Assembly (NCBI RefSeq): GCF_009931435.1
Contig: NZ_CP043414.1
Direction: 5' to 3' (one strand)
DNA from: Escherichia coli
GTDB taxonomy: Bacteria; Pseudomonadota; Gammaproteobacteria; Enterobacterales; Enterobacteriaceae
Length of the DNA: 64,000 bases
Numbering within the stretch: the first letter of the stretch is position 1; the number at the start of each line of letters is the position of its first letter. This document shows, in pieces, positions 14,095 through 58,459 of this stretch. A program made the translations under genes and the position numbers. The notes beneath the pieces are model-generated. The model was not told the origin of the DNA and searched no databases. It worked only from the letters and a program-made list of their open reading frames with translations.

Positions 14095-14679
14095 TTACTC
14101 CCTGACAGGGTTCGTAGGCCACTCAATATCAGGTGCAGTTGATGTATCAACACGGTTCAGCAACACCCGATATTTTTTCCAGGCTTCCAGCAATGAGGTT
14201 TCTTCCTCCGTTGCGATTTCCAGATCTACAGCATCCTGAAGTGGCGCAATATGCTCACTGGCTACCTGCATCAGGCTGTTTTTTGTTTCTTCCGCCTCCC
14301 GAATCCGGAACAGTTTTTCTGCTTCTGCATCTTTCACCCAGGCTGTACCGTTCCACTTCTGAAACTCCCCTTCCGGCGATAACCAGGTAACATTTTCCGG
14401 TAACGGACCGAGTTCAGAAATAAATAACGCGTCCCCTGACGCTACGTCATAAACCGTTTTACCCCGATGATCTTCAACGAGATGCCACGATGACTCATCA
14501 CTGTTGAAAACAGCCACGAAGCCAGCTGGAATATCTGGCGGTGCAATGTCGGTACTGTTTGCTGGCAGACCTGTATGAGGCGGAATATATGCGTCACCTT
14601 CACCAATAAATTCATTAGTTCCGGCCAGCAGATTATAAATTGTTATGGTCCGTGGTTGTTCACTCATTCTGAATGCCAT
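14095..14679 (-). CDS. tfa: Tail fibre assembly protein Tfa
   Basis: ORF track 194 aa; start overlaps the stf stop by 1 nt; lambda Tfa-like. Confidence 0.85.
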
Positions 14680-17600
14680 TATGCAAGCCTCACAATATAG
14701 TTAAATGCGATGTTTTTGACGGTGTTTTCCGCGTTACCAGCAGCGTTAACGGTGATGGTGTGTCCATGTGAGCCAATCGCAACCGAGTGCGTATGAGCAC
14801 CAATACCGACAGTATGTGCGTGTGCACCTGCGCTTGCTGCAGTGCCGGACAGTGAGTGGGTATGAGCACCATCTGATGATGTCTTCCCTGCATTACGAGT
14901 CTGGCCACTACCGCTTGTTGTGCTCATAATCCCCGCGCTTGGATTTGAAATCGCGGTATAACCATTAGGGAAAATGCTCGTGTTCGTGCCACCAAATGCA
15001 CCGGAACTCTTGTGTTGGTGCGCACCGGCACTATTTGCGGTCCCGCTAATACTATGGGTATGCGCCCCGGTGTTATTCGTGGATTTGGTTCCGTAATCAA
15101 ACGACGATGTGGTTTTCGTCCCCAAATCCGTACTGGATGCGCTGGCGCTGTGGGTATGCGATTTAATGCCGTCCTGTTCCTGAGACAATACGGCCCGACC
15201 ACTGGCAGGTTTGCCCTTAATCGTCCAGCCACGCATATCAGGGATCACGCCTGACGGATAAGCCGCTGCAAGTTTCGGGTAGGCAGATTTGTCAAAAGCC
15301 TGCCCCTGCATCAGGGCATAGCCAGACGGAACGGTATCTGATGGCCACGGGATTGGTGCGCCGACTGGGTAGCTTTCTGGTGGAAGATTTTTCGAGGTAT
15401 AAACTTCTGCCCAGTCTTCCTCAAAACCATAGCCATCTCTTGAGGAACGGTAGAACAGACCTCCATTTCTGTAATGCGCCTTCATCTGCAGGGTCCGGCA
15501 ACTTCCGACTCCGGTATAGAAGTTAACCAGAATATAGCTGTCGCCAGAGCGGGTGACATTGTAAGCGCCTGATTCGGCATTCCAGGGAACGCCACCATCC
15601 GCATCGGCATATGTATCCGTTGCCCTTCTGGCAAAAGCAGCCACATGCGCGGCGGTTAAAGTAATATCTTTGGAACCATCAAACTCAACACCAGAAACCA
15701 GTCTTGGCGTTTGCAGCTTTGTTGCTGTTAATGCATTACCGTTCAGACTTGCGGACAGTTTGGTTCCAATAATCAGTTCGCCGGTTGCGTTATCAATAGC
15801 AAACGGTCTTAATGTATTCCAGCCACCATAAACATCACCTTGATTGGTAAGCAGCAGGTAAGTTTTAGCGCCATCATTACGCCATAATGCACCATACTCC
15901 CCACCTATCATTCGAATCTGATTACCACCACGCGCTACAATTTCGTCTGTGGCAAAAAGTTTTTTGCACGACAAGTTATCGTTAACGATTAACGAATGAG
16001 ACTCATAAAAACCACGCCCACTCTTAAAATCAAGGATAACGTCCGCCGCGATACATTCAGTCGCCGGATTTGTTGCCCCAAACTTATAGGTCGTATCATT
16101 AACAACGAGATCAGCACCAGGTGCGGATATTGACAGGCCATCTTCGATAAACGCAAAAACAGGGAAAGCAGCGCCATCAACATAGAACACAGAGCGCAAA
16201 TCATCGCCCTTATTACTCATCATTATTGAGTGGATGGCTCGTTCATTGTTTTGATATTGCCAGAACATTCCATAAGCATAACGCCCCCTGTCAGTCCAGC
16301 CACCAGGCATAACAAATCCGTTAAACTCGCAGTTATTCATCGGATCGCCTGCGGTTCGCGTTGCCGTGGTGATAATGACCCTTGATGCCAGTTCGCTTAC
16401 TGAGCCAGCAGAACGCATAACAACAACAGGGTAATATTTTCCAGATGTTGCACCTGCAGGAGCGTTAACCCGCACATAACGCATACCACGCTTATCAGCA
16501 AAGTCTGTTTTACTGACCGCGTTAATGTTGTTCAGGAAGCGTCCCTTATCGGGTATATCAGCGCCGTTCTGGTCTTTCTGCAGACGTTTCTCTGCATTGT
16601 CATAGGCTGATTTTACTGCCTTTGGCGTTGCCGCCAGCGTTTCAGACGTACTGTTGGTCGCACTGCTGAGCTGTACTACCCCCTTTTTCGTCGTGCTCGC
16701 ATCCTCAAGCGCCACGGCGGATGCAATATCCTCTGCCCGTTTTGCCGCTGTCTCGGCGCGCGTTGCCGCGGATTCCGCCGTACTTTTGCTCTGAGCTGCC
16801 GCCGTCGCACTGCCAGCTGCCTCTGTCGCCTTCGTGGATGCCGTCGTGGCGCTGCTCTTCGCTGCTGACGCTTGTCTGGTCGCCTCATCTTTTGAAGCAG
16901 ACGCAGATGATGCCGATGACGCCGCCGAACTGGCTGACGATGCGGCAGCCGTTTTTGAGGATTCTGCGCTGGTTTCCGACGCTTTCGCGTTCGTTTCGGA
17001 TGTCTTCGCTGCGGAAGCAGAACTCGCTGCTGCGCTGGCCTGTTCAGTGGCTTCGCCAGCCTTCGTTGTGGCTGTTGAAGCAGACGATGCGGCACTTTCT
17101 GCCGACTTTCCGGCAGCGGTGGCACTGGCTGAGGCCTGCCCGGCACTTGTTGACGCGGCGCTGGCAGATGATGCAGCCGCTGTTTTTGAGTCTGCTGCTG
17201 CGGAGGCACTCTGTTCCGCTGCCGTCTCAGAAGACTTAGCGTTCGTCTCGGACGTTTTTGCCGCCTTCGCGGAATTTCCTGCCGCCGTTGCCGAGGAAGC
17301 TGCGCTACTGGCGCTCGAGGATGCGTTCGTTTCTGATGATTTCGCTGCCTCTTTTGAGGCCGCCGCATCCCTGGCTGAGGTGGCAGCTTCTGACGCTTTC
17401 CTGGTCGCGGTGGATGCAGAAGTGGCTGCTGATTGTTGTGACGCTGCGGCATTCGTTTCTGACGTTTTCGCCGCACCGGCACTGGTGGCCGCCGCGCTTT
17501 TTGAGGACTCTGCAGCGGCAGCACTTTTTTCCGCTTCAGTGGCCTTTGCTGATGCCGTTCCTGCGCTGGAAGATGCTGACTGAGCCGACGACGCGGCCTG

Positions 17601-30586: not shown

Positions 30587-31612
30587 TTACGCCAGTTGTA
30601 CGGACACGAACGCATCAGGATCAGCCAGCAGCATCAGCGGTGCTGACTGAATCATGGTGAACTCACGCGCCGGATCGCCGGTGGTCACCCAGTTTTTCGG
30701 GTAGCGGGCAGAGGCGTTAATACCTTCGCGCTGTGCGTCCGCATCCTGAATGCAGCCATAGGTGCGCAGACCGCGTGCCTGAGTGTTCCCCAGCACCATC
30801 GTGTTGTCCGGCAGGAAGTTCTTTTTGACGTCGTTTTCCACGTACTGTCCGGAATACACGACGATCGCCGTATCGCCATACATCCCCTTATAGGACACCG
30901 CTTCGCCCAGATCTTTTACCGCTGTCTCCAGCTCGGAATGAGAGCCGCGACGGGTATCCAGCTTCTCCTTGACGGCTTTGAAGGAACGGAACAGCGCCCA
31001 GCCTTTCGGATCAAACACGATGATATTCACCACACCGCTGGCGTTCAGCGCGTAGGCTTCGATATCGTCGGTCGGGTCATACGTGGACTTGTCACGCTTG
31101 CTCCACTCCGTACCGCCGGACTGCGTGATGTTGTTCGCCACACTGCGGCCCATATCCACTTCAACCGGATCGAAGGCTTCACCGGTCATGGTATATTTGC
31201 CCTTAAGCACGGCAGAAACGGCCTGCATCTCTTCGACCTGAGCAATGGCCAGCTCTTCGTCTCGCATGTTCTGCAGAATGATGCGACGGCGGCGGTAAGC
31301 CGGGTCCGCCAGATTCTGTGGATCTTCATCCGGCAGGCGACGCAGGGTCATCTGCGGATTCACCTCATGCTTCGGCTTGACATATCCCGGTGTAAATTCA
31401 GAGGTGGAGCCGCCACGGGAGCGGATAACCTCACCGGAAACAATCGGCGAAACGTACAGCGCCATGTTTACCAGTCCCGGAATTTGTGAGAGATAGACTT
31501 TCTCCGTGGTGAAGGGATAGCTCTCACGGAAAAAGAGACGCAGAAACAGCGGATCAAACTTAAATTTCTTCTCATTTGCCGCCAGCAGCTGGGCGGTTGT
31601 GTACATCGACAT
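30587..31612 (-). CDS. E: Major capsid protein E
   Basis: ORF track 30587..31639; start at MSMYTT gives 341 aa; lambda gpE-like. Confidence 0.9.
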   Translation of the reverse strand: MSMYTTAQLLAANEKKFKFDPLFLRLFFRESYPFTTEKVYLSQIPGLVNMALYVSPIVSGEVIRSRGGSTSEFTPGYVKPKHEVNPQMTLRRLPDEDPQNLADPAYRRRRIILQNMRDEELAIAQVEEMQAVSAVLKGKYTMTGEAFDPVEVDMGRSVANNITQSGGTEWSKRDKSTYDPTDDIEAYALNASGVVNIIVFDPKGWALFRSFKAVKEKLDTRRGSHSELETAVKDLGEAVSYKGMYGDTAIVVYSGQYVENDVKKNFLPDNTMVLGNTQARGLRTYGCIQDADAQREGINASARYPKNWVTTGDPAREFTMIQSAPLMLLADPDAFVSVQLA

Positions 31613-41140: not shown

Positions 41141-41564
41141 CTGTGTGACGAAGTAACCACTCTTAACAGCATAACCAATTTTTTACGTACGTAAACCACT
41201 AAATGATATTTGAGAGAATGCTACCGAGTATTGAAAACACCACTACAAATACATAAGCAAATCTCAACAAATAACCAAAAAATAATTTCCAGTGTTATTT
41301 TTAGCCGGTTTAAATTGAACCTTCAAATTATAGAACACTTATAAATAACAGCCGTTAATATAAATTGGCTAATAGATTTATTTTTATTCAGCCAAGAGCC
41401 ATGAATAGGATTCGATAGAAAAAAGTTCAGATAAAAATAGAGATCTACTTCACAAATCAAACGAGAAACCAAAACTTACATCTTGAAATAATCACATTGA
41501 TTAGATGAATATTTATCGCGCAGTGACATCATTTTTTAATAATAGTTCAAAAAAAGGGCTCACG

Positions 41565-42662
41565 ATGAAAAAATTAACAGTGGCAATTTCTGCTGTAGCT
41601 GCATCAGTACTGATGGCGATGTCTGCTCAGGCAGCTGAAATTTATAATAAAGACAGTAACAAGCTGGATCTGTACGGGAAAGTTAATGCTAAGCACTACT
41701 TCTCCTCTAATGATGCAGATGATGGTGATACTACTTATGCCCGTCTTGGCTTCAAAGGTGAAACCCAAATCAACGATCAACTGACTGGTTTCGGTCAGTG
41801 GGAATATGAATTCAAAGGCAACCGCGCTGAATCTCAAGGTTCCTCCAAAGATAAAACCCGTCTTGCCTTCGCTGGCCTGAAATTCGGTGACTACGGCTCC
41901 ATCGATTACGGCCGTAACTACGGTGTAGCATACGACATCGGTGCGTGGACTGACGTCCTGCCAGAATTCGGTGGTGACACTTGGACTCAAACCGACGTGT
42001 TCATGACTCAACGTGCAACTGGTGTTGCAACCTATCGTAACAACGACTTCTTTGGTCTGGTTGATGGTCTGAACTTTGCTGCTCAGTACCAAGGCAAAAA
42101 CGATCGTAGCGATTTCGATAACTACACTGAAGGTAACGGTGATGGCTTCGGTTTCTCTGCTACCTATGAATACGAAGGATTCGGTATCGGTGCAACTTAT
42201 GCGAAATCTGATCGTACCGACACTCAAGTTAATGCAGGGAAAGTTCTTCCTGAAGTATTTGCTTCCGGTAAAAATGCAGAAGTTTGGGCCGCAGGTCTGA
42301 AATATGACGCTAACAACATTTACCTGGCCACTACCTATTCTGAAACCCAGAATATGACTGTATTTGCTGATCACTTCGTTGCTAATAAAGCCCAAAACTT
42401 CGAAGCTGTTGCACAATATCAGTTCGATTTCGGTCTGCGTCCGTCCGTTGCTTACCTGCAATCTAAAGGTAAGGATCTTGGAGTATGGGGCGATCAGGAC
42501 TTAGTCAAATATGTTGATGTAGGTGCAACCTATTACTTCAACAAAAATATGTCTACTTTCGTTGATTACAAAATCAACCTGCTTGACAAAAATGACTTCA
42601 CTAAAGCACTCGGTGTAAGCACTGATGACATCGTTGCTGTAGGTCTGGTTTACCAGTTCTAA
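41565..42662 (+). CDS. nmpC: Outer membrane porin NmpC (OmpC/OmpD family), intact
   Basis: ORF track 41505..42662; start at MKKLTVAIS with signal peptide; C-terminal Phe; no IS interruption. Confidence 0.9.
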
Positions 42663-44270: not shown

Positions 44271-44725
44271 TACGCCTCCTGCTTGTCGCGCAGCAGCTGG
44301 AACTCGCAGCTCTGTGGAATAGTCAGGTGGCAACCAATATTCATCGCCCAGGCTTCAACCTTACACAGGAAGACATACATCTCTCCGGTATCAAGATCGG
44401 AGGTATGGCGTAACGACTGGATAGTGGTGATATCACCGGTTACGACATCAACCAGGTCTTTGGTTTCATAACCGAGATATGTGTGTTTGAGAGCATCTTT
44501 TACCCAAGCTGGAGTGGCGAACGTTTTACCCCTGCTGATGAGGTATTCACTGATTTCGCTGTACCACATGTGGCTGAGTGCATTCTGGGAAAGACTGCGT
44601 TTCTCACGCCACGGTTTAAGCACCATGCGAAAGCATTTGCCCTCCTCCAGATAAGGCTGGATCTGCCGACCGATAGCGGTGAAGTTGCCGCGATGTAATT
44701 TGATGCCGTCTTGTGAGAGGTTCAC
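44270..44725 (-). CDS. ybcN: nin-region protein YbcN
   Basis: ORF track 151 aa; K-12 DLP12 gene order. Confidence 0.75.
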
Positions 44726-44939
44726 GCTTCCCCTCCGCAGAGGTCAAACGCTAGATGCAAAGAATTGCAGGTGCATTTCTGCATCTGTGAAGGGAGAAGA
44801 GAGTTTGGATTGTATGTGCGCATAAACGTCCCCGTTTAGCGCAGAAGTCACCGGAGTTGTTCAGGCTCCGGTGACATAATTATGCCGTGTTGATTTCCCA
44901 AAATCAAAATCGATAGAATTGCTCCTTCTTAAAACACTT

Positions 44940-49246: not shown

Positions 49247-49944
49247 ACACTTGCTCCTTTCAGTCCGAACTTAGCTTTAATTTCTGCGATCTTCGCCAGA
49301 GCCTGTGCACGATTTAGAGGTCTACCGCCCATAACAGGAAGTTGTTTTACTGGTTCAGGTATCGTCTCACCACGGTTAATTCGCGCTGTCATACAGGTCA
49401 GTTCATCGGCAGCCTTGCGCCGTAATTCCGCGTCAGCCAGCGCATTGGCCCGCATGTTCTGGTACAAGTTGGTAACCAACCAGTAATGCGCGTTCGATTT
49501 CCACGGATAAGACTCTGCATCCGGATACAGGCCACGCTTCCGGCAATACTCGTAAACCATATCAACCAGCTCGCTGACGTTTGGCAGCCCGGCGTTAACA
49601 GATGCTTCTTCCCGGCACCAGGCGACAAACTGCCCGGGTGATGGCAGGAATGGTCGATTCTGCCGACGGGCTACGCGCATTCCAGCGTTAACCTGTTCCA
49701 TTGTGGTGATCCCGTTTTCCCGGAAAGCCAGAACCCACTGGCGGCGGATTTCGTTCAGTTCATTCTGGTCACGGTTAGCCAGGCTAGCCGGGAAAGTTGC
49801 CAGTAACTGGCTGAACACACCGTTGATGATCTGCGCTACCTGCTGTACCTGCGGCTTTTCGTCGTACTGTTCCGGCATATTGTTGGCGATCCGGCGCATC
49901 TGCTCACGGTCAAAGTTAACCATCTGTGCGGCGATGTTTTTCAT
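49243..49944 (-). CDS. P: Replication protein P (DnaB helicase loader)
   Basis: ORF track 233 aa, lambda gpP length. Confidence 0.9.
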   Translation of the reverse strand: MKNIAAQMVNFDREQMRRIANNMPEQYDEKPQVQQVAQIINGVFSQLLATFPASLANRDQNELNEIRRQWVLAFRENGITTMEQVNAGMRVARRQNRPFLPSPGQFVAWCREEASVNAGLPNVSELVDMVYEYCRKRGLYPDAESYPWKSNAHYWLVTNLYQNMRANALADAELRRKAADELTCMTARINRGETIPEPVKQLPVMGGRPLNRAQALAKIAEIKAKFGLKGASV

Positions 49945-50960
49945 AAATCCACCCCGTAAATCCAGTCAGTGTTCGTCAGGTCGAGTTTTGGTTTGCCGGC
50001 TGTCACGCCAGCCTGTTGCTTGTTTCGGTTGATTTCGAGCTGGGTCCACTTGTCGCGGAGTTTGGCCGGACTCAGCACGTTACCGGACCAGAAGTTGTCC
50101 TGGCATGCCCAGCGGAACAGCACGCACATGTCGCGGTGGTTACGTCCGTCACGTTCACGCATCAGGCGGATATCGTTAGCCCACCCTGCAAAATTCGGTT
50201 TTCTGGCTGATGGCGCGATGGTCTTCACCATGTCAAACATCCACTCTGCGGCGGTCAGGTCTTCTGCTGTCCCCCACTTGCTGCCACTCTGAATTGCAGC
50301 ATCCGGTTTCACCACAGGAAGGTCGTTTTCTGGCTGGTCAGAGGATTCGCCAGAATTCTCGGACGAAAAAGGTTTTATATTGTCTTTTGTTAGTTTGTCT
50401 TTTGTGTTTACCTGATTCGGGTAAACGCCTTTACCTGATTTGGGTAAACTTTTCTTACCTGATTCAGGTAAATTTACCTCTTTCAGGTAAACTTTATTTT
50501 TCTTACCTGATTCGGGTAATGTTGACCATTCACTGACCACATTATTAATGCCGATATTTCGCCCGCTCTGAATAAGAATCCCACGCTTTACCAGAACGCT
50601 TTTTGCAGCAGAACACTTGTGCGGCAATATCCCGGTCAATTCGGAAAGTTGCTCGTTGCTCACCCAATCCAGTCTTTTATTAAAGCCATATGTTTTGCGC
50701 ATGACAGCCAGGAAGACCAGAAGCTGGTGCTGTGTTAATCCGGCCAGCATCACAGCTTCCAGCAACTCATTTGCAATGCGCGTATAACCATCATCGAGAT
50801 CTGCCACGCGCGGCTCCTTTTGTGCCGCATCCGGCACTGGAAAATTGAATATCTCAGCAGTGTTTGCCATAATTCCTCCCGCAATGAGTGTGTTACGATT
50901 TGCACCTGAAAGTCGGTTCTGTTCCCGCAGACCGACTTTCGCCATTTCTGAACCTATCAT
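49941..50960 (-). CDS. O: Replication initiator O (lambda-like C-terminal half; non-lambda N-terminal half and iterons)
   Basis: ORF track 339 aa; contains ori iterons and AT-rich segment; start overlaps upstream stop (ATGA). Confidence 0.85.
   Translation of the reverse strand: MIGSEMAKVGLREQNRLSGANRNTLIAGGIMANTAEIFNFPVPDAAQKEPRVADLDDGYTRIANELLEAVMLAGLTQHQLLVFLAVMRKTYGFNKRLDWVSNEQLSELTGILPHKCSAAKSVLVKRGILIQSGRNIGINNVVSEWSTLPESGKKNKVYLKEVNLPESGKKSLPKSGKGVYPNQVNTKDKLTKDNIKPFSSENSGESSDQPENDLPVVKPDAAIQSGSKWGTAEDLTAAEWMFDMVKTIAPSARKPNFAGWANDIRLMRERDGRNHRDMCVLFRWACQDNFWSGNVLSPAKLRDKWTQLEINRNKQQAGVTAGKPKLDLTNTDWIYGVDL
50405..50525. repeat. Phage replication origin: about five iterons of the form TACCTGATTCGGGTAAAC inside the O gene
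   Basis: Direct repeats each with internal dyad TACC..GGTA, read on the + strand; adjacent AT-rich stretch. Confidence 0.7.
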
Positions 50961-51496
50961 ATTGCCCCCAGCATGGTGGTCACCATCGCCATTAATGGAC
51001 CAGCCAGATCCGGGTCCACACGAAACATCGACACAATACCTTCACTCATTTCCTTCAGTTTCTGGTGGCGTGGTGCGTTGAGAATGACAGCCTGTTTTGC
51101 CTCACTGAGTTCCTTTTCCATTTCAGCCAACCGAGTCATGAAGCTATCCTGCTCAACCAGGTAACCGCGATATTCCAGCGGTAGTACCGCCAGAATTGCC
51201 GGGGTCAGTTCACGCACGTTATTTCGGTATTTTTCAGAATCGAATTTGTTATCGAGGAAGCGGAACAGCTTCTGGCGTGCACGGCTGACATCATCAGGGA
51301 AATCGATGGTGCCGTCGCCCTGCTCCCGATACTCATTCACAATGAGTGCGGCAACGACATCCTGATTATCTACAGCCGACCAGGCGCGGACGGCATCACG
51401 GATTTTTTCGTGGCCTGGAGCTTGTTTTGTTTGAGAACGATTTATCACCGCAGTCGGAATAAATCCGCTAGTCTGTTGGTATGTAAGTGGTTGCAT
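50957..51496 (-). CDS. YdaT-like protein at the cII position
   Basis: ORF track 179 aa; follows the Cro-like gene and is coupled to O. Confidence 0.55.
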   Translation of the reverse strand: MQPLTYQQTSGFIPTAVINRSQTKQAPGHEKIRDAVRAWSAVDNQDVVAALIVNEYREQGDGTIDFPDDVSRARQKLFRFLDNKFDSEKYRNNVRELTPAILAVLPLEYRGYLVEQDSFMTRLAEMEKELSEAKQAVILNAPRHQKLKEMSEGIVSMFRVDPDLAGPLMAMVTTMLGAI

Positions 51497-51565
51497 AATT
51501 GACTCCTTTAGTTTGAATTGACTGTTAAGTTGATTGCTTATTGTTAAAGAGCGTGAAATGGAAAT

Positions 51566-51796
51566 TTAAGCTGCGTTCTTTTCGGTGTGTGGAAACAACT
51601 TCGGAAGATCCGGGCGAATCTGGTATGCCTTCACAACTCCACCAGTAGCCGTAACAATGCTGCCGACATGTTCAGGGGATACCTTTGCTTTGTTGTGAAG
51701 CCACTTATAGACGGCCTGCTGTGAAACTTCGCAGGCATCGCCTAGTTTCTTTTGTGAACCAACGATATTGATCGCTGTTTTGATTGCTGGGTTCAT
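51566..51796 (-). CDS. Cro/YdaS-like HTH regulator
   Basis: ORF track 76 aa; HTH (QQAVYKWL); divergent from repressor gene. Confidence 0.7.
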   Translation of the reverse strand: MNPAIKTAINIVGSQKKLGDACEVSQQAVYKWLHNKAKVSPEHVGSIVTATGGVVKAYQIRPDLPKLFPHTEKNAA

Positions 51797-51900
51797 AACA
51801 ACCTCCGTGGTTAATCCGAATCAAGATTAAAACTATGGTTGTTTTTAGTCAACAACCATTTTCGTTTGATGAAATAAAACCTTGGTTGTACATTTGATCT
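51797..51900. promoter_or_regulatory. Right operator/divergent promoter region with ATGGTTGTT-N7-AACAACCAT palindrome and extra TGGTTGT half-sites
   Basis: Inverted repeat read at about 51835..51859 between the divergent repressor and cro-like genes. Confidence 0.55.
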
Positions 51901-52590
51901 ATGAAAACAACACTCTCAGAAAGACTTAAAGAAGCCAGATTAGCGCGAGGCCTTACACAAAAGGCGCTTGGGGATTTGGTCGGGGTTAGCCAGGCTGCTA
52001 TTCAGAAAATCGAAACAGGGAAAGCTAACCAAACAACTAAAATCGTGGAGATCGCGAACGCTTTGGGTGTACGCGCAGAATGGTTATCTTCTGGCGTTGG
52101 AAATATGTCAGACAGTACAGTGCAACCAATACAATCAACTGTCAGCCATTCCAAATACTTCAAAATTGACGTTCTTGATATAGAAGTCAGTGCCGGGCCA
52201 GGTGTAATCAACCGTGAGTTTGTAGAAGTTCTACGCTCGGTTGAGTACTCGTTTGACGATGCTCGTCACATGTTCGATGGCAGGAAGGCGGAAAATATCC
52301 GCATCATTAACGTGCGAGGTGACAGCATGTCAGGGACGATCGAACCAGGTGACCTGCTGTTCGTTGATATCACTGTTAAATCTTTCGACGGTGATGGCAT
52401 CTATGCGTTTCTGTACGACGACACTGCCCATGTAAAACGTCTTCAAATGATGAAGGATAAGCTGCTGGTTATCTCTGATAACAAGAGCTACTCGCCGTGG
52501 GACCCGATCGAGAAAGACGAGATGAACCGGGTGTTCATATTCGGTAAGGTCATTGGAAGCATGCCGCAGACGTACAGGAAGCATGGTTAA
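51901..52590 (+). CDS. Prophage repressor, LexA/S24-peptidase type (CI analogue)
   Basis: ORF track 229 aa; N-terminal HTH plus C-terminal autoproteolysis domain. Confidence 0.85.
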   Translation: MKTTLSERLKEARLARGLTQKALGDLVGVSQAAIQKIETGKANQTTKIVEIANALGVRAEWLSSGVGNMSDSTVQPIQSTVSHSKYFKIDVLDIEVSAGPGVINREFVEVLRSVEYSFDDARHMFDGRKAENIRIINVRGDSMSGTIEPGDLLFVDITVKSFDGDGIYAFLYDDTAHVKRLQMMKDKLLVISDNKSYSPWDPIEKDEMNRVFIFGKVIGSMPQTYRKHG

Positions 52591-52819
52591 TTTATCTACG
52601 ACTTAAGGGAGCGAAGGTTAAGGTTTATACCACTCGGATTAGATATTGCACTAAATTCTCTATAAGAACGCCAAATCTGTTTGCATATTTCAGTAAATAT
52701 TCTCGTTGTTAGCTGAGATTTGTTGCTACTGTCAGCAAAATGTCTCCCTATCTCGTAGCGGTTTTTATTTCGAATCATTATGTTAAGATGTTTCTGATTA
52801 TAATGAATGGAAACATAAA

Positions 52820-53200
52820 ATGAGAAAAATCCTAATCGCTGCCATGATGGCATCTGTATTGGCTGGGTGTGCTTCTTCAGGCAACCAGCAACTCAAAAAT
52901 GAAACTGAAATTAGTGTCCAGTCTAAACTTCAGGAAGGTAAAACAACCAAGAATGAGGTTAAATCTTACTTTGGTTCTCCTGATGCTGTTTCATATACTG
53001 ACAGTGGAAAGGAGATCTGGAAGTACGCCTTTGCAAAAGTAAAAGTTAATGGCACCACTTTTATTCCATTCTATGGATTATTCCATAACGGAACGAACGG
53101 TACGAAAAAAGAACTTACTATTCTTTTTAACGATGACACGATTAAGAAATACACAATGTCAGAAACCCAAATAAACTCGAAATCAGGTTGGGCTGACTGA
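52820..53200 (+). CDS. Putative lipoprotein, unknown function (cargo gene downstream of repressor)
   Basis: ORF track 126 aa; signal peptide with lipobox LAGC; own terminator downstream. Confidence 0.7.
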   Translation: MRKILIAAMMASVLAGCASSGNQQLKNETEISVQSKLQEGKTTKNEVKSYFGSPDAVSYTDSGKEIWKYAFAKVKVNGTTFIPFYGLFHNGTNGTKKELTILFNDDTIKKYTMSETQINSKSGWAD

Positions 53201-53217
53201 TAATCATACCCGGCAAC

Positions 53218-53246
53218 CGCGCCGGGTTTTCTTTTCCTCCCCCTCA
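53218..53246 (+). terminator. Intrinsic terminator after the lipoprotein gene
   Basis: Hairpin cccggc-aaccgc-gccggg followed by ttttctttt. Confidence 0.65.
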
Positions 53247-53476
53247 TAACTCATACCGTCCAAAAAACCACCACACCTCACTTCAGTTATCGCTATGCGA
53301 TGCAAGTCACAAAATAAATCCATCCTAAATACAACCAGTTATATTTAAAACAACCGATAAAACAACTTTTGTTGTTGACGATAAAACAACTATAGTTTTA
53401 AATAAATTCATCGCAACGACACAACGATACGGTAACCACCTGTTTCACCGTTGCGATGACCGCTTAGATCCGCAGT

Positions 53477-53887
53477 TTGAATTTCAGCAGGCTTCGGGGA
53501 GTGCGAGGGGTGAAACGGACGCGTGAACGTCGGTGTGACCAGCTGAAATCAACACAACACTTTATACCTCAGTCGCTTCAACGAGGCGGCTTAGTTATGA
53601 CAACCGGCGGCCATCCACCGCCTGAATACGCGCAGAAGTCTCTATATGTTCAGCAGCCCAGCTTACGGGCAGGAGTTTTTATGGTTCATCAACATTACGG
53701 AACGCAGACCGTTAATCGAGGTGCGGTCATGCCAGGAATGCTGGTCAAACACAAAGATGGTACCTGGACTGCATCAGCTAATTTACGCGGACGGCTTTAT
53801 CTGCATCGCGGCATCGAGCGCACTTATACCCGTGATTTGCTCGTGGAAGTTTTTCTCGACGGACGCGGTAACGGCCTGAATCGCTAA
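53477..53887 (+). CDS. Hypothetical protein at the early-left position (possible start at 53597)
   Basis: ORF track 136 aa from a non-ATG start; first ATG (MTTGG...) has a weak RBS; in frame with and 75 bp upstream of gam. Confidence 0.4.
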
Positions 53888-53962
53888 TCCCCTTTCCTGT
53901 TTTCCTAATCAGCCTGGCATTTCGCGGGCGATATTTTCACAGCCATTTTCAGGAGTTCAGCC

Positions 53963-56460: not shown

Positions 56461-56679
56461 ATGGCAGACATCATTGATTCAGCATCAGAAATCGAAGAAT
56501 TACAGCGCAATACAGCAATAAAAATGCGTCGTCTGAACTACCAGACTGTATCCGCAACTCATTGTTGTGAGTGTGGCGATCCGATAGATGAGCGAAGACG
56601 CCTGGCTGTTCAGGGTTGTCGGACTTGTGCGAGTTGCCAGGAGGAGATCGAACTTAAGAACAAACAATGGGGACTGTGA
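56461..56679 (+). CDS. DksA/TraR-family C4 zinc-finger protein (lambda Orf73-like)
   Basis: ORF track 72 aa; CxxC...CxxC motif. Confidence 0.7.
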   Translation: MADIIDSASEIEELQRNTAIKMRRLNYQTVSATHCCECGDPIDERRRLAVQGCRTCASCQEEIELKNKQWGL

Positions 56680-56726
56680 TGGCCTCAAAGCAGCAAATTT
56701 CAACATCGTCCAACTGAGGTGTAAAA

Positions 56727-57005
56727 ATGTTCAGAATCATTTTTCCTAACACCTGGTACGTCGACCACCACGGCACTCCCTGCAAAATCCTGCGTTCTAC
56801 CCACAACAAAGTTCACTACATCCGAAAAGGCAGAACATGTATCGCCAGCATGTTCCGCTTTAATCATGACTTTGAACCTGTGAATAAAGCTGATGCAGAT
56901 CGGATAGCAGAAGAGATCGAAACGGCAGAACACATTAAGAAGTTACGTGACATGCGTTCAAAAAGCAGAGGTAACCATGGAATCATACAGCCTCACACTC
57001 GATGA
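56727..57005 (+). CDS. Hypothetical protein
   Basis: ORF track 92 aa; between the traR-like gene and xis. Confidence 0.4.
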   Translation: MFRIIFPNTWYVDHHGTPCKILRSTHNKVHYIRKGRTCIASMFRFNHDFEPVNKADADRIAEEIETAEHIKKLRDMRSKSRGNHGIIQPHTR

Positions 57006-57348
57006 GGCCTGTCAGTTTCTTAAGATATCCAGACCAACCGCCACCAACTGGATACGAACAGGCCGCCTACAGGCAACACGTAAAGATCCAACCAAGCCAA
57101 AATCTCCTTACCTCACAACACGGCAAGCCTGCATTGCGGCGCTTCAGTCTCCGCTGCATACTGTCCAGGTGAGCGCGGGTGATGGCATAACAGAGGAAAG
57201 AAAATGTCACTCTTCCGCAGAAATGAAATATGGTATGCCTCGTATTCGCTCCCGGGCGGGAAACGAATTAAGGAATCTCTTGGCACAAAGGACAAGCGGC
57301 AAGCTCAGGAGTTGCACGACAAGCGAAAAGCAGAACTCTGGCGAGTAG
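56977..57348 (+). CDS. xis: Putative excisionase (HTH, AlpA/Xis-like N-terminus); 3' end uncertain, overlaps int
   Basis: ORF track 56947..57348; internal Met MESYSL..; N-terminal HTH; position upstream of int. Confidence 0.5.
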
Positions 57349-58382: not shown

Positions 58383-58459
58383 TGGCGCGCCCTGCAGGAT
58401 TCGAACCTGCGGCCCACGACTTAGAAGGTCGTTGCTCTATCCAACTGAGCTAAGGGCGC
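58383..58459 (-). tRNA. argU: tRNA-Arg (anticodon UCU, argU)
   Basis: 77-nt sequence with CCA end matching argU by recall; its 3' 45 nt is the prophage attachment repeat. Confidence 0.88.

Follow-up and report, generated by a model that had tools for sequence, protein, structure and literature searches.

The window analysed here, a stretch of 64,000 nucleotides of Escherichia coli DNA, contains a lambdoid prophage at the DLP12 attachment region, which is marked by tRNA-Arg, intD, emrE and ybcK-ybcM. The open reading frame of exactly 179 aa described in the earlier note at 50957-51496 is present in the ORF list and lies on the minus strand, which that note had not stated. Its first ATG and the first ~7 codons are kept across the family in the alignment. 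A Cro-like gene had been placed directly before it; this gene encodes 76 aa, and its Pfam YdaS_toxin match bears the placement out; the P22_Cro and HTH_3 matches of the same gene are weak. The frame thus lies directly 3' of a YdaS/Cro-like gene, with a divergent repressor on the other side and replication genes downstream, the next ORF 3' being O (Phage_rep_O, E = 4e-34). Collinearity of the window with strain GPEC1446 was considered and rejected, as GPEC1446 carries an IS3 in ybcN and an integrase-primase-capsid island inside the capsid gene and the window has neither. The genes of the immunity region are as follows.

51901..52590, plus strand: CI-type repressor (HTH and S24 peptidase), divergent from cro-cII (Pfam Peptidase_S24, E = 1e-18; HTH_3, E = 5e-13)
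51566..51796, minus strand: Cro-like repressor of the YdaS family, 76 aa (Pfam YdaS_toxin, E = 7e-17; P22_Cro, E = 7e-5; PHROG 35, transcriptional repressor)
51503..51508, minus strand: Shine-Dalgarno sequence AAGGAG of cII, 6 nt 5' of the ATG, read from the sequence
50957..51496, minus strand: cII, phi80 type (YdaT family), 179 aa (ORF, Pfam, phi80 CII identity, PHROG 163, PhiR26_1 cII, AF2 model)

The homology search against YdaT/DUF1019 proposed in the earlier note revealed a significant match to Pfam PF06254 (YdaT_toxin, formerly DUF1019), with 104.5 bits against a cutoff of 21 and E = 4e-30 over profile positions 1-90 of 92. Sequence matches in the PDB were 8bt1 and 3c4r, and Rac YdaT shares 34% identity over 96 aa (E = 3e-11). 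The description as a YdaT-like protein in the cII position therefore holds, by the Pfam match, the identity to Rac YdaT and the fold match given below. The resemblance to the Rac YdaT family stands as regards the family, but Rac YdaT is not the closest relative, since the phi80 CII is 66% identical over 180 aa (E = 7e-92). This similarity runs over the full length, including the N-terminal extension and the C-terminal hydrophobic helix. In addition, PHROG 163, 'CII-like transcriptional activator', covers residues 17-179 (E = 1e-66), and the protein is 100% identical to the annotated cII product of the isolated phage PhiR26_1. Relatives annotated as cII are found in PhiR26_1, 4A7, Perceval, mEp237, HK639, HK225 and phi80. 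The lambda Phage_CII HMM of Pfam gave no match at E ≤ 0.1, and NCBIfam holds no model for the 179-aa protein. A search of a representative library returned a small family, 107 clusters with E ≤ 1e-3 of which many are fragments; it added diversity to the alignment and no further domain information.

The AF2 model has a mean pLDDT of 83, with residues 1-25 disordered and helices at 29-43, 45-59, 70-82, 88-104, 107-113, 119-138, 143-159 and 162-178. Foldseek placed YdaT chains (8bt1/3c4r) in all of its best five positions, with probability 1.0 and TM-scores of 0.66-0.67 normalised to the target, and, like 8BT1/3C4R, the model comprises a POU-like HTH domain of five helices and, after it, a long helix. 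This helix, 119-138 in the AF2 model of the monomer, carries the conserved E129, and the C-terminal architecture differs from that of the solved YdaT. No lambda CII structure, such as 1ZS4 or 1XWR, was among the Foldseek matches of the model; the combination that the earlier note had set against its own claim, no YdaT homology together with a clear CII-like fold, is thus the reverse of what was found. The recognition helix reads RQKLFRFLDN here and TQKIFRWLDK in CP-933P. Within its F78-R79-F80 segment, F78 and R79 hardly vary among 32 sequences, and the next aromatic residue is F here and W in most members. R79 aligns with the conserved DNA-contact arginine, R57 of Rac and R60 of CP-933P.

The protein belongs to the YdaT family by sequence and by predicted fold, its gene lies between cro (ydaS) and O, and it is identical to the cII product of a temperate phage. 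We conclude with good confidence that the ORF is cII of a DLP12-like lambdoid prophage, of the phi80 type and the long (~180 aa) branch of the YdaT family, and that it encodes a lysogeny regulator. The CII of phi80 type is well known, and the gene is an ordinary one. A need for it in setting up lysogeny would follow from the gene name used in phi80 records, and the phi80 genetics of Ogawa et al. (1988) reportedly assigned cII to the establishment of lysogeny, with clear plaques when it is mutated.

The earlier note regarded the function of YdaT as still debated between a regulator and a toxin-like protein, a question that papers of 2021-2025 have largely settled: YdaS and YdaT are Cro and CII analogues, and the YdaT family comprises tetrameric transcription factors, not toxins (PMC8630535, PMC9986795, PMC11879457). 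YdaT of CP-933P is homologous to phi80 CII and activates PRE933P, and YdaS/YdaT do not form a TA pair (PMC8630535). It is a tetramer with a POU-like domain and gives a footprint on its box; in the Rac and CP-933P homologues each subunit combines the POU-like helix-turn-helix with a long oligomerisation helix (PMC9986795). Rac YdaT binds its box, activates a reverse promoter 29-fold and activates expression of the repressor gene racR; the Rac and CP-933P boxes are cross-recognised, and the H56A R57A mutant has lost DNA binding (PMC11879457). The box consensus is (A/T)TGATT-N6-AATCAA (PMC9986795, PMC11879457). In both homologues a leftward pRE-type promoter is switched on, resulting in more repressor (PMC8630535, PMC11879457).

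A candidate for the corresponding promoter was found within the first codons of cII.

51431..51448, no strand: YdaT-box-like element TTGAGA-acgatt-TATCAC (plus strand) in cII codons 17-22, predicted CII operator of pRE; conserved position
51469..51474, plus strand: predicted pRE-type -10 TAGTCT, reading through cro (antisense) into cI, TSS ~51481; conserved TAnnnT
51530..51547, no strand: second, weaker box-like site TTGATT-gcttat-TGTTAA in the cro-cII spacer; lineage-specific

The element at 51431-51448 agrees with the published consensus at 8 of 12 positions and was therefore missed in a scan allowing up to 3 mismatches. It lies at the same position in all ten phi80-type phages compared and is near-consensus in mEp237, ST846 and Kp5, the mEp237 box agreeing at 11 of 12 positions with the Rac box and at 10 of 12 with the CP-933P consensus. 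Among 17 distinct close variants it is invariant, and an adjoining lineage-specific inverted repeat is polymorphic. A TAnnnT follows the box at exactly 20 nt in the same ten phages, with T1, A2 and T6 invariant and the middle free. In Rac, TATGAT stands at the same 20-nt distance on the antisense strand, and in Tritos, a CP-933P-like phage, TAGTTT stands at 21 nt. The third position of codon 9 is always T though the amino acid varies (T/N/G/S), and the rare isoleucine codon ATA (or ATT) is retained in the box. Here, within codons, the conservation of box and -10 is confounded with that of the protein and with the common ancestry of the phages. The second site, at 51530-51547, has TAAGCT 19 nt later and is flanked by AATTGACT direct repeats. 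As another operator, the perfect 7-bp inverted repeat GATTTAT-N13-ATAAATC (51439-51465) was discarded, its left arm being polymorphic in close relatives and the repeat being absent from phi80-type relatives.

Based on these features, we propose how the regulator might act. After infection, cII would be transcribed from pR behind cro, and CII would bind the predicted site in the first 22 codons of its own gene. The centre of the site would lie at about -41.5 with respect to a weak opposite-strand promoter, with TAGTCT as -10 and no usable -35, to which CII may recruit RNA polymerase as a class-II-type activator. The pRE transcript would run antisense through cro into cI, and lysogeny would be established. 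The disordered N-terminal extension of 25-28 aa of the phi80 type would then be largely coding sequence laid over pRE. Against this, the activated promoter of Rac was given as PracR4, 190 bp from the box and not adjacent to it (PMC11879457), and the CP-933P authors placed the strong box downstream of their predicted PRE. The promoter-like TTCACA-17-AACAAT in cro (51630-51658, plus strand) may be a PracR4 analogue at 190 bp from the box, but it is the TAnnnT next to the box that is conserved. A search for a motif common to the cro-cII junction, Q (41500-42100) and the sequence upstream of int (56600-57260) returned chance-level matches only. A PWM and -10 scan detected no box-plus-promoter upstream of int or antisense in Q; therefore, targets like lambda pI and paQ are not evident.

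A second candidate target was revealed by the box scan at the start of the nin-Q region.

44890..44907, no strand: perfect YdaT box TTGATT-N6-AATCAA between ybcM and ylcH/ybcN
44879..44884, minus strand: -10 CATAAT of a rightward promoter (TTGATT-17-CATAAT), with the left box half as -35; nearly invariant in the phage alignment
44817..44875, minus strand: conserved two-hairpin leader 3' of the nin promoter, the second hairpin holding the RBS and start codon of ylcH (MFE, covariation)

This box is the sole 12/12 match in the 64 kb, and 100 shuffles gave none. The record X92588 of phage 82 gives the same -35 and -10 as putative. The leader has an MFE of -32.7 kcal/mol (z = -5.9), with compensatory changes in both stems; Rfam has no match for it, and comparison by eye with the phi80 nutL region gave no convincing similarity. 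Tentatively, CII might bind the perfect box, which covers the -35 and spacer of the conserved promoter before ylcH-ybcN...Q, where it would most simply repress and delay late-gene activation.

It is quite possible, though we lean the other way, that neither this palindrome nor the box-like site in cII is a target of CII, the former being a -35 with chance symmetry or the site of another protein. TTGATT is by itself a fair -35, and FNR half-sites equal those of the YdaT box at a different spacing, which counts for this reading. The Enterobacter phage ENT1, which has no detectable YdaT/CII homologue, still carries the leader and a degenerate palindrome resembling the box. However, an alignment of eight phages shows no less invariance in the right half-site than in the left, with free variation in the 6-bp spacer and in the flank upstream, and in phi80 and HK225 both halves are changed symmetrically to TTGATA..TATCAA. 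The nin box has the same sequence as the operator footprinted for CP-933P (PMC9986795). A phi80-type cII is also present in each of the 25 phage records in which the match extends over the nin box, and among 50,697 records the module occurs only in phages with such a cII, a co-occurrence which could nevertheless reflect common descent of a linked module. In mEp237, the only other TGAT-N8-ATCA lies just upstream of ninB.

The junction of cII and O was claimed in the earlier note to be an ATGA overlap with translational coupling. The tetranucleotide is indeed at 50957-50960, but its ATG is most likely not the start of O, as the conserved start lies 90 nt downstream at 50870 and the extension is not conserved in relatives; the claim of coupling is not supported. 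The features of the junction are the following.

49941..50870, minus strand: replication gene O from the conserved start, 309 aa; SD and ATG align with lambda O and phi80 gene 15, and the database annotation extends to 50960
50881..50949, plus strand, 3' end approximate: oop/M3-like antisense RNA filling the cII-O spacer; its 5' end corresponds in the alignment to the one annotated for phi80 M3 RNA
50908..50940, plus strand: terminator-type hairpin of this RNA (MFE, covariation)
50845..50873, plus strand: pO-like promoter TTGAAT-17-tgCATAAT, its -10 overlapping the O start codon (promoter scan; -35 and -10 columns conserved in 10 phages)

The ATGA is present because the last cII codon (ATA/ATG/GTG) is followed by TGA. 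The sequence GGGAGGAATT-ATG-GCA-AAC-ACT, comprising the SD, the ATG at 50870 and the following codons, aligns position by position with the starts annotated for lambda O and phi80 gene 15. A cII-O gap of 84-89 nt and the downstream SD-ATG are kept in every relative checked. We consider that the apparent overlap is most likely an artefact of gene calling. It is unlikely, with perhaps a small chance, that O does start at 50960 and is coupled to cII, which would give a 339-aa O with a 30-aa N-terminal extension. The ATG at 50960 opens an uninterrupted frame into O, is preceded at 4 nt by a GGGGG run and was chosen by RefSeq/PGAP and by the PhiR26_1 annotators. The frame is also open in 79 of 80 close relatives, and KO-TP1 has an in-frame GTGA. 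An open frame of 29 codons is, however, expected by chance in about 1 of 4 cases (estimated as (61/64)^29), and the counterpart of the lambda O and phi80 gene 15 starts lies at 50870 and has a strong SD. In five relatives with a homologous spacer (phi80, mEp237, HK639, HK225 and PHB10) reading from the (A/G)TGA at the end of cII meets stop codons and is in a different frame from the O-like start as annotated. One of the 80 near-identical metagenomic loci (L075) has lost 1 nt of the spacer, which would disrupt the long O frame. By our own count, the spacer has about 7 non-synonymous substitutions for 4 synonymous ones, and its variation resembles that of an RNA hairpin, showing G.U and compensatory changes when read on the opposite strand.

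Instead of a coupled O start, the cII stop would be followed by an 86-nt spacer encoding an oop/M3-like antisense RNA. The terminator hairpin has an MFE of -24.6 kcal/mol (z = -4.4), and 0 of 200 shuffles were as stable. It comprises 14 pairs, 8 of them with compensatory changes, and its G.U pairs fit the plus strand only. In the HK639 record an 'M3-like RNA' is annotated in the same gap; Rfam has no family matching the RNA. The pO-like promoter has near-identical hexamers at the same position in the reverse complement of the lambda O start region, which we take to be lambda pO. O is most likely annotated 30 codons too long as a matter of routine, hiding the gene of an oop/M3-like antisense RNA, and correction of the start would be useful because the surrounding 1.1 kb is present in 2302 of 5426 complete E. 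coli genomes (~42%).

That cII is a decaying remnant without current function, as in a cryptic prophage, is very improbable. The locus is the DLP12 attachment region, and the DLP12 of K-12 is defective and lacks the cII segment. Here, however, the ORF is intact with SD and start conserved, the insertions of GPEC1446 are missing from the prophage, and the region occurs at ≥95% identity in more than 2000 genomes. In addition, PhiR26_1, to whose cII the gene is identical, is a deposited 48-kb phage genome with K-12 MG1655 as listed host. Even less tenable, and largely refuted already, is that the immunity region by chance includes a YdaS/YdaT toxin-antitoxin pair with YdaT as toxin or toxin-like growth inhibitor: the Pfam and RefSeq names ('Bacterial toxin YdaT', 'toxin YdaT domain-containing protein') say toxin and expression of Rac YdaT is lethal with filamentation (PMC5700377, PMC11879457), but the name is a product of a TA-prediction program, CP-933P YdaT is non-toxic and part of no TA module (PMC8630535), activation of rcsA transcription accounts for the toxicity of Rac YdaT (PMC11879457), the 179-aa protein has an HTH fold with the conserved DNA-contact arginine, the identical gene is annotated cII in an isolated phage, and the adjoining gene is a Cro-type HTH repressor.

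For the gene itself, the outcome is the identification of a prophage gene very common in E. coli, under the label 'toxin YdaT domain-containing protein', as a phi80-type CII lysogeny regulator, and little else changes. The side results yield testable predictions for the YdaT family, namely the position of pRE, the role of the N-terminal extension and a possible second operator at nin/Q. From sequence comparison we put forward, as a speculative proposal that may well prove wrong, that YdaT/phi80-type CII proteins share a common, so far undescribed promoter architecture, a box at about -41.5 of a -35-less antisense promoter with TAnnnT at 20-21 nt, and a second target at nin-Q. If true, pRE of the phi80 type would be buried in the codons of the disordered N-terminal extension, which would explain the extension, and the activation from 190 bp away described for Rac may come from a box-adjacent promoter. 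CII could also directly gate late-gene activation at nin-Q, replacing paQ of lambda. In K-12, Rac YdaT would be predicted to act on the identical DLP12 box, which would amount to cross-prophage control of ylcH-ybcN-rusA-quuD.

Among known systems, phi80 is similar in most respects. Its CII (YP_007947970; PHROG 163) shares the N-terminal extension and the C-terminal PLM..MLG tail with the 179-aa protein, and its genes follow the same order of cI, cro-like gene, cII, a ~85-nt spacer with M3 RNA and an O-like gene. The layout of box, 20 nt and -10 in the first 22 codons is the same, with half-sites TTGAGC/TATCAT in phi80 and TTGAGA/TATCAC here. The box module of the nin region is also shared. However, phi80 has another immunity module (cI/cro specificity), whereas a YdaS-type Cro of 76 aa is found here, and it has replication genes 15/14 in place of the lambda-type O/P.

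YdaT of CP-933P (8BT1; homologue 3C4R) shares with the 179-aa protein the fold over residues ~28-140 (Foldseek probability 1.0, 27-28% identity), the slot between ydaS and the replication gene and, nearly unchanged, the recognition helix. It has 141 aa, with neither the last helix nor the N-terminal extension of 25-28 aa. Box and start codon overlap in this gene, whereas the box-like site here is 48 nt inside cII. The α6 of CP-933P YdaT is a single helix of 29 residues, whereas the C-terminal part is modelled here as three helices, a shorter α6 and two extra ones, so the tetramer geometry of the solved YdaT may not carry over. Rac YdaT (b1358, E. coli K-12) has 140 aa, is toxic on expression via rcsA activation and also binds the racR-ydaS intergenic region.

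Lambda CII occupies the same slot and follows the same logic, being made from pR and activating a leftward promoter whose -35 region lies inside cII and whose transcript is antisense to cro. An oop-type RNA is encoded at the cII/O junction in lambda as here. In contrast, lambda CII, of 97 aa, forms an unusual dimer of dimers on the direct repeat TTGC-N6-TTGC, whereas the YdaT type recognises an inverted repeat (PMC9986795).

The 179-aa ORF proposed in the earlier note was confirmed as real, and it does follow a Cro-like gene, a 76-aa gene located 5' of it on the same strand. The features of this neighbourhood are:

50957-51496, minus strand: cII ORF, 179 aa, confirmed as real
6 nt 5' of the cII ATG, minus strand: Shine-Dalgarno AAGGAG of cII, read from the sequence
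51566-51796, minus strand, same as cII: 76-aa gene matching Pfam YdaS_toxin (E=7e-17), with weaker matches to P22_Cro/HTH_3
51901-52590, divergent from the 76-aa gene: repressor with HTH and S24 peptidase

Genes for a Phage_rep_O protein, P and ren follow in this order 3' of cII. The 179-aa protein matched Pfam YdaT_toxin unambiguously (104.5 bits vs a cutoff of 21), a phmmer search against PDB sequences retrieved only two YdaT structures (8BT1 and 3C4R), and BLASTP against Rac YdaT revealed 34% identity over 96 aa (E=3e-11). The suggested resemblance to Rac YdaT therefore holds at the family level; however, the closest characterised relative is a phage phi80 protein annotated as cII, with a full-length identity of 66% (E=7e-92). 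The protein also matches PHROG 163, 'CII-like transcriptional activator' (E=1e-66). Searching 50,697 phage records by tblastn yielded 39 matching records, nearly all annotated as cII and including PhiR26_1, 4A7, Perceval, mEp237, HK639, HK225 and phi80; the cII of PhiR26_1 (listed host K-12 MG1655) is 100% identical to the window protein. An alignment of 32 sequences revealed two branches, the long phi80-type (~180 aa) and the short Rac/CP-933P-type (140-160 aa), with W39, F78, R79, L97, P99, I101, P106 and E129 invariant or nearly so. The long branch is marked by an N-terminal extension of 25-28 residues and by a hydrophobic helix conserved at the C-terminus (PLMAMVT.MLG..). In the AlphaFold2 model (mean pLDDT 83), residues 1-25 are disordered and eight helices follow. 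Its top five Foldseek matches against PDB are all YdaT chains (probability 1.0, target-normalised TM 0.66-0.67, 27-28% identity), and no lambda CII structure is among the PDB matches listed. The combination of absent YdaT homology and a clear CII-like fold, which the earlier note had named as refuting, was therefore not observed. The protein thus belongs to the YdaT family in the cII slot, and is more precisely a phi80-type CII.

The function of YdaT, which the earlier note regarded as still debated, has largely been resolved. In CP-933P, YdaS and YdaT do not form a toxin-antitoxin pair; YdaT acts as an activator of a pRE-like promoter, and its homology to phi80 CII was pointed out in the same study (Jurenas et al., PMC8630535). 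The YdaT structure consists of a POU-like HTH domain and a long helix forming an antiparallel four-helix-bundle tetramer, and the footprinted operator is 5'-TTGATT-N6-AATCAA-3', here called the box (Prolic-Kalinsek et al., PMC9986795). Rac YdaT, in which H56/R57 are required, binds ATGATT-N6-AATCAA overlapping its own start codon, cross-recognises the CP-933P box, raises racR expression 29-fold and exerts toxicity through rcsA activation (Wons et al., PMC11879457). The recognition helix RQKLFRFLDN of the window protein is close to TQKIFRWLDK of CP-933P YdaT, and its R79 aligns with the essential Arg of Rac YdaT. Therefore, cII here is an already known kind of gene, with a family function already characterised. 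It is also extremely common: of 5426 complete E. coli genomes, 2302 contain the 1.1-kb cII region, nearly all of them with an identity of at least 95%.

In a RefSeq strain 100% identical across this 1.1 kb, the annotation labels the ORF 'toxin YdaT domain-containing protein' and assigns the region to a lambdoid prophage occupying the DLP12 site (tRNA-Arg, intD ... emrE, ybcK-ybcM, ybcN, rusA, quuD). The window prophage is more intact than that of GPEC1446, its best-matching RefSeq strain (compared at 31368-31377 and 44430-44433), which carries an IS3 in ybcN and an ~11-kb integrase-primase-capsid island in the major capsid gene, both absent from the window. Two Rfam matches at gathering level were found on the minus strand: IS009 (RF02111, 228 bits) at 14138-14336, and a tRNA at 58386-58459 that adjoins the prophage integrase and is likely the attachment site; the matching RefSeq record annotates it as tRNA-Arg. 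The cI-cro intergenic region (51828-51889) contains a perfect 9-bp inverted repeat, ATGGTTGTT-N7-AACAACCAT, at 51835-51859 and direct repeats TAAAAC(T/C)(A/T)TGGTTGT at 51828 and 51875; these are likely to be the OR operators for this type of immunity. Between cI and kil (52590-53900) there is no evident N-like antiterminator gene but a 126-aa lipoprotein-like ORF (52820-53200); PhiR26_1, with the identical module, likewise has no annotated N. Four to five copies of an ~18-bp iteron like TTACCTGATTCGGGTAAA occur inside O (50400-50530) and presumably mark the origin of replication, comparable to lambda ori.

Translational coupling of cII to O through an overlapping ATGA had also been proposed. 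The tetranucleotide is present at 50957-50960, its frame is open into O, and both PGAP and the phage annotators start O at the 50960 ATG. However, the annotated starts of lambda O and phi80 gene 15 line up with GGGAGGAATT-ATG-GCA-AAC-ACT at 50870, and in every relative 84-89 nt separate the cII stop from an SD-ATG-(S/A)-N-T start. The ATGA itself is formed by TGA together with the cII codon before it, and in 5 of 6 relatives checked the corresponding (A/G)TGA does not share the frame of the O-like start and runs into stops. Therefore, the long O is very probably an ORF-calling artefact in this lineage, and the coupling falls with it.

The over-extended O annotation hides a predicted oop/M3-like antisense RNA gene, which fills the cII-O spacer:

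50845-50956, plus strand: predicted oop/M3-like RNA gene
50845-50873, plus strand: promoter-like TTGAAT-17-tgCATAAT, its -10 on the O start codon
50908-50940, plus strand: strong hairpin, putative terminator (-24.6 kcal/mol, z=-4.4)

This promoter-like sequence mirrors TTGAGT-17-CATAAT, which lies on the opposite strand at the start of lambda O and which we take to be lambda pO. This gap is annotated in phi80 as 'M3 RNA, homolog of lambda oop RNA' and in HK639 as 'M3-like RNA', and alignment places the 5' end of phi80 M3 at G50881, the approximate predicted start of the RNA here. The hairpin covaries, with compensatory changes in 8 of 14 pairs among nine sequences; several are G.U pairs on the plus strand, whose mRNA-strand counterparts would be A.C mismatches. 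The 3' end is approximate (about 50941-50949), since the U-tract is interrupted (GCCAUUUCUG). No Rfam family covers this RNA. Experimentally, M3 is known as an RNA induced by phi80 and a substrate of RNase P (PMC11143913, citing Bothwell et al. 1976).

The sole 12/12 match to the box in the 64-kb window lies in the nin region, between the ybcM stop and ylcH/ybcN; none occurred in 100 shuffles.

44890-44907: nin box
44879-44884, minus strand: -10 of the conserved putative promoter TTGATT-17-CATAAT, whose -35 is the left half of the nin box read rightward
44875-44817, minus strand: conserved two-hairpin leader (z=-5.9), compensatory changes in both stems

The same -35/-10 hexamers are annotated as a putative promoter in the phage 82 record X92588. 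The second leader hairpin contains the ylcH RBS and ATG, and the loop CCUGAACAA and linker GACUUCUGCGC are invariant. Among PhiR26_1, 4A7, HK639, KO-TP1, CobraSix, HK225 and phi80 the half-sites are invariant, save a symmetric change to TTGATA..TATCAA in phi80 and HK225, while the 6-bp spacer and upstream flank are unrelated. Since the box covers -35 to -18, CII bound there would most simply repress the promoter, thereby directly gating entry to the nin-Q operon. The module is matched by 29 phage records, 25 with the box in the match, and all 25 carry a phi80-type cII. The remaining records are a 2.3-kb partial one of phage 82, which retains the box and has no immunity region, and three Enterobacter phages with a leader match only; mEp237 has no nin module, and its only TGAT-N8-ATCA outside cII is just upstream of ninB. 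This association may also reflect linkage by descent, and the Enterobacter phage ENT1 is a counter-example to strict association: it keeps a degenerate form of the palindrome, has TGAT-N8-ATCA at 16017 and 10536 and retains a portion of the nin leader, yet neither a YdaT-type nor a lambda-type CII homologue is detectable in it. DLP12 of K-12 carries an identical box (NC_000913.3, about 572285-572302), and Rac YdaT is predicted to act on it, because it cross-binds this sequence type (PMC11879457).

Near cII, the published box was not found at up to 3 mismatches, apart from a weak site between cro and cII (51530-51547). When ten phi80-type phages were compared in register on the antisense strand, they shared an element resembling the box at cII codons 17-22, with TAnnnT exactly 20 nt beyond it:

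51431-51448, antisense strand: box-like element TTGAGA-acgatt-TATCAC
51469-51474, antisense strand: TAnnnT hexamer TAGTCT

The element reads TTGATT-gcgatt-TATCAT in mEp237, TTGATT-tcgctt-TATCAG in Kp5 and TTGAGC-gcggtt-TATCAT in phi80, and a rare Ile codon ATA, or ATT, is kept within it. T1, A2 and T6 of the hexamer are invariant and its middle bases variable (TATTGT, TATTTT, TACCTT and TACTCT elsewhere); the invariant A corresponds to the third position of codon 9, which is always T even where the encoded residue changes among T, N, G and S. Seventeen distinct close variants are identical from +42 to +73, and the adjoining lineage-specific inverted repeat is polymorphic. Taking TAnnnT as the -10 puts the box centre at -41.5 and leaves a poor -35 hexamer (CACCGC), from which we infer a class-II activator-dependent promoter. 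Its CII-dependent transcript would start near 51481 and run antisense through cro into cI. The N-terminal extension, conserved though predicted disordered, would then be kept because the promoter lies in its codons. Taken jointly, the promoter architecture and the nin-region box form a tentative proposal drawn from sequence comparison, with the odds somewhat against it.

On the antisense strand of Rac (NC_000913.3 1420600-1420700), TTGATT-ttcatg-AATCAT is followed after 20 nt, the same spacing as in the window, by TATGAT, which agrees with the -10 consensus at 5 of 6 positions and suggests a box-adjacent class-II promoter; this conflicts with the view of the Rac authors, who attribute activation to PracR4 at a distance of 190 bp (PMC11879457). 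Tritos, a CP-933P-like phage, has TAGTTT at 21 nt from the box. The predicted promoter of the window is analogous to lambda pRE, whose -35 region likewise lies inside cII.
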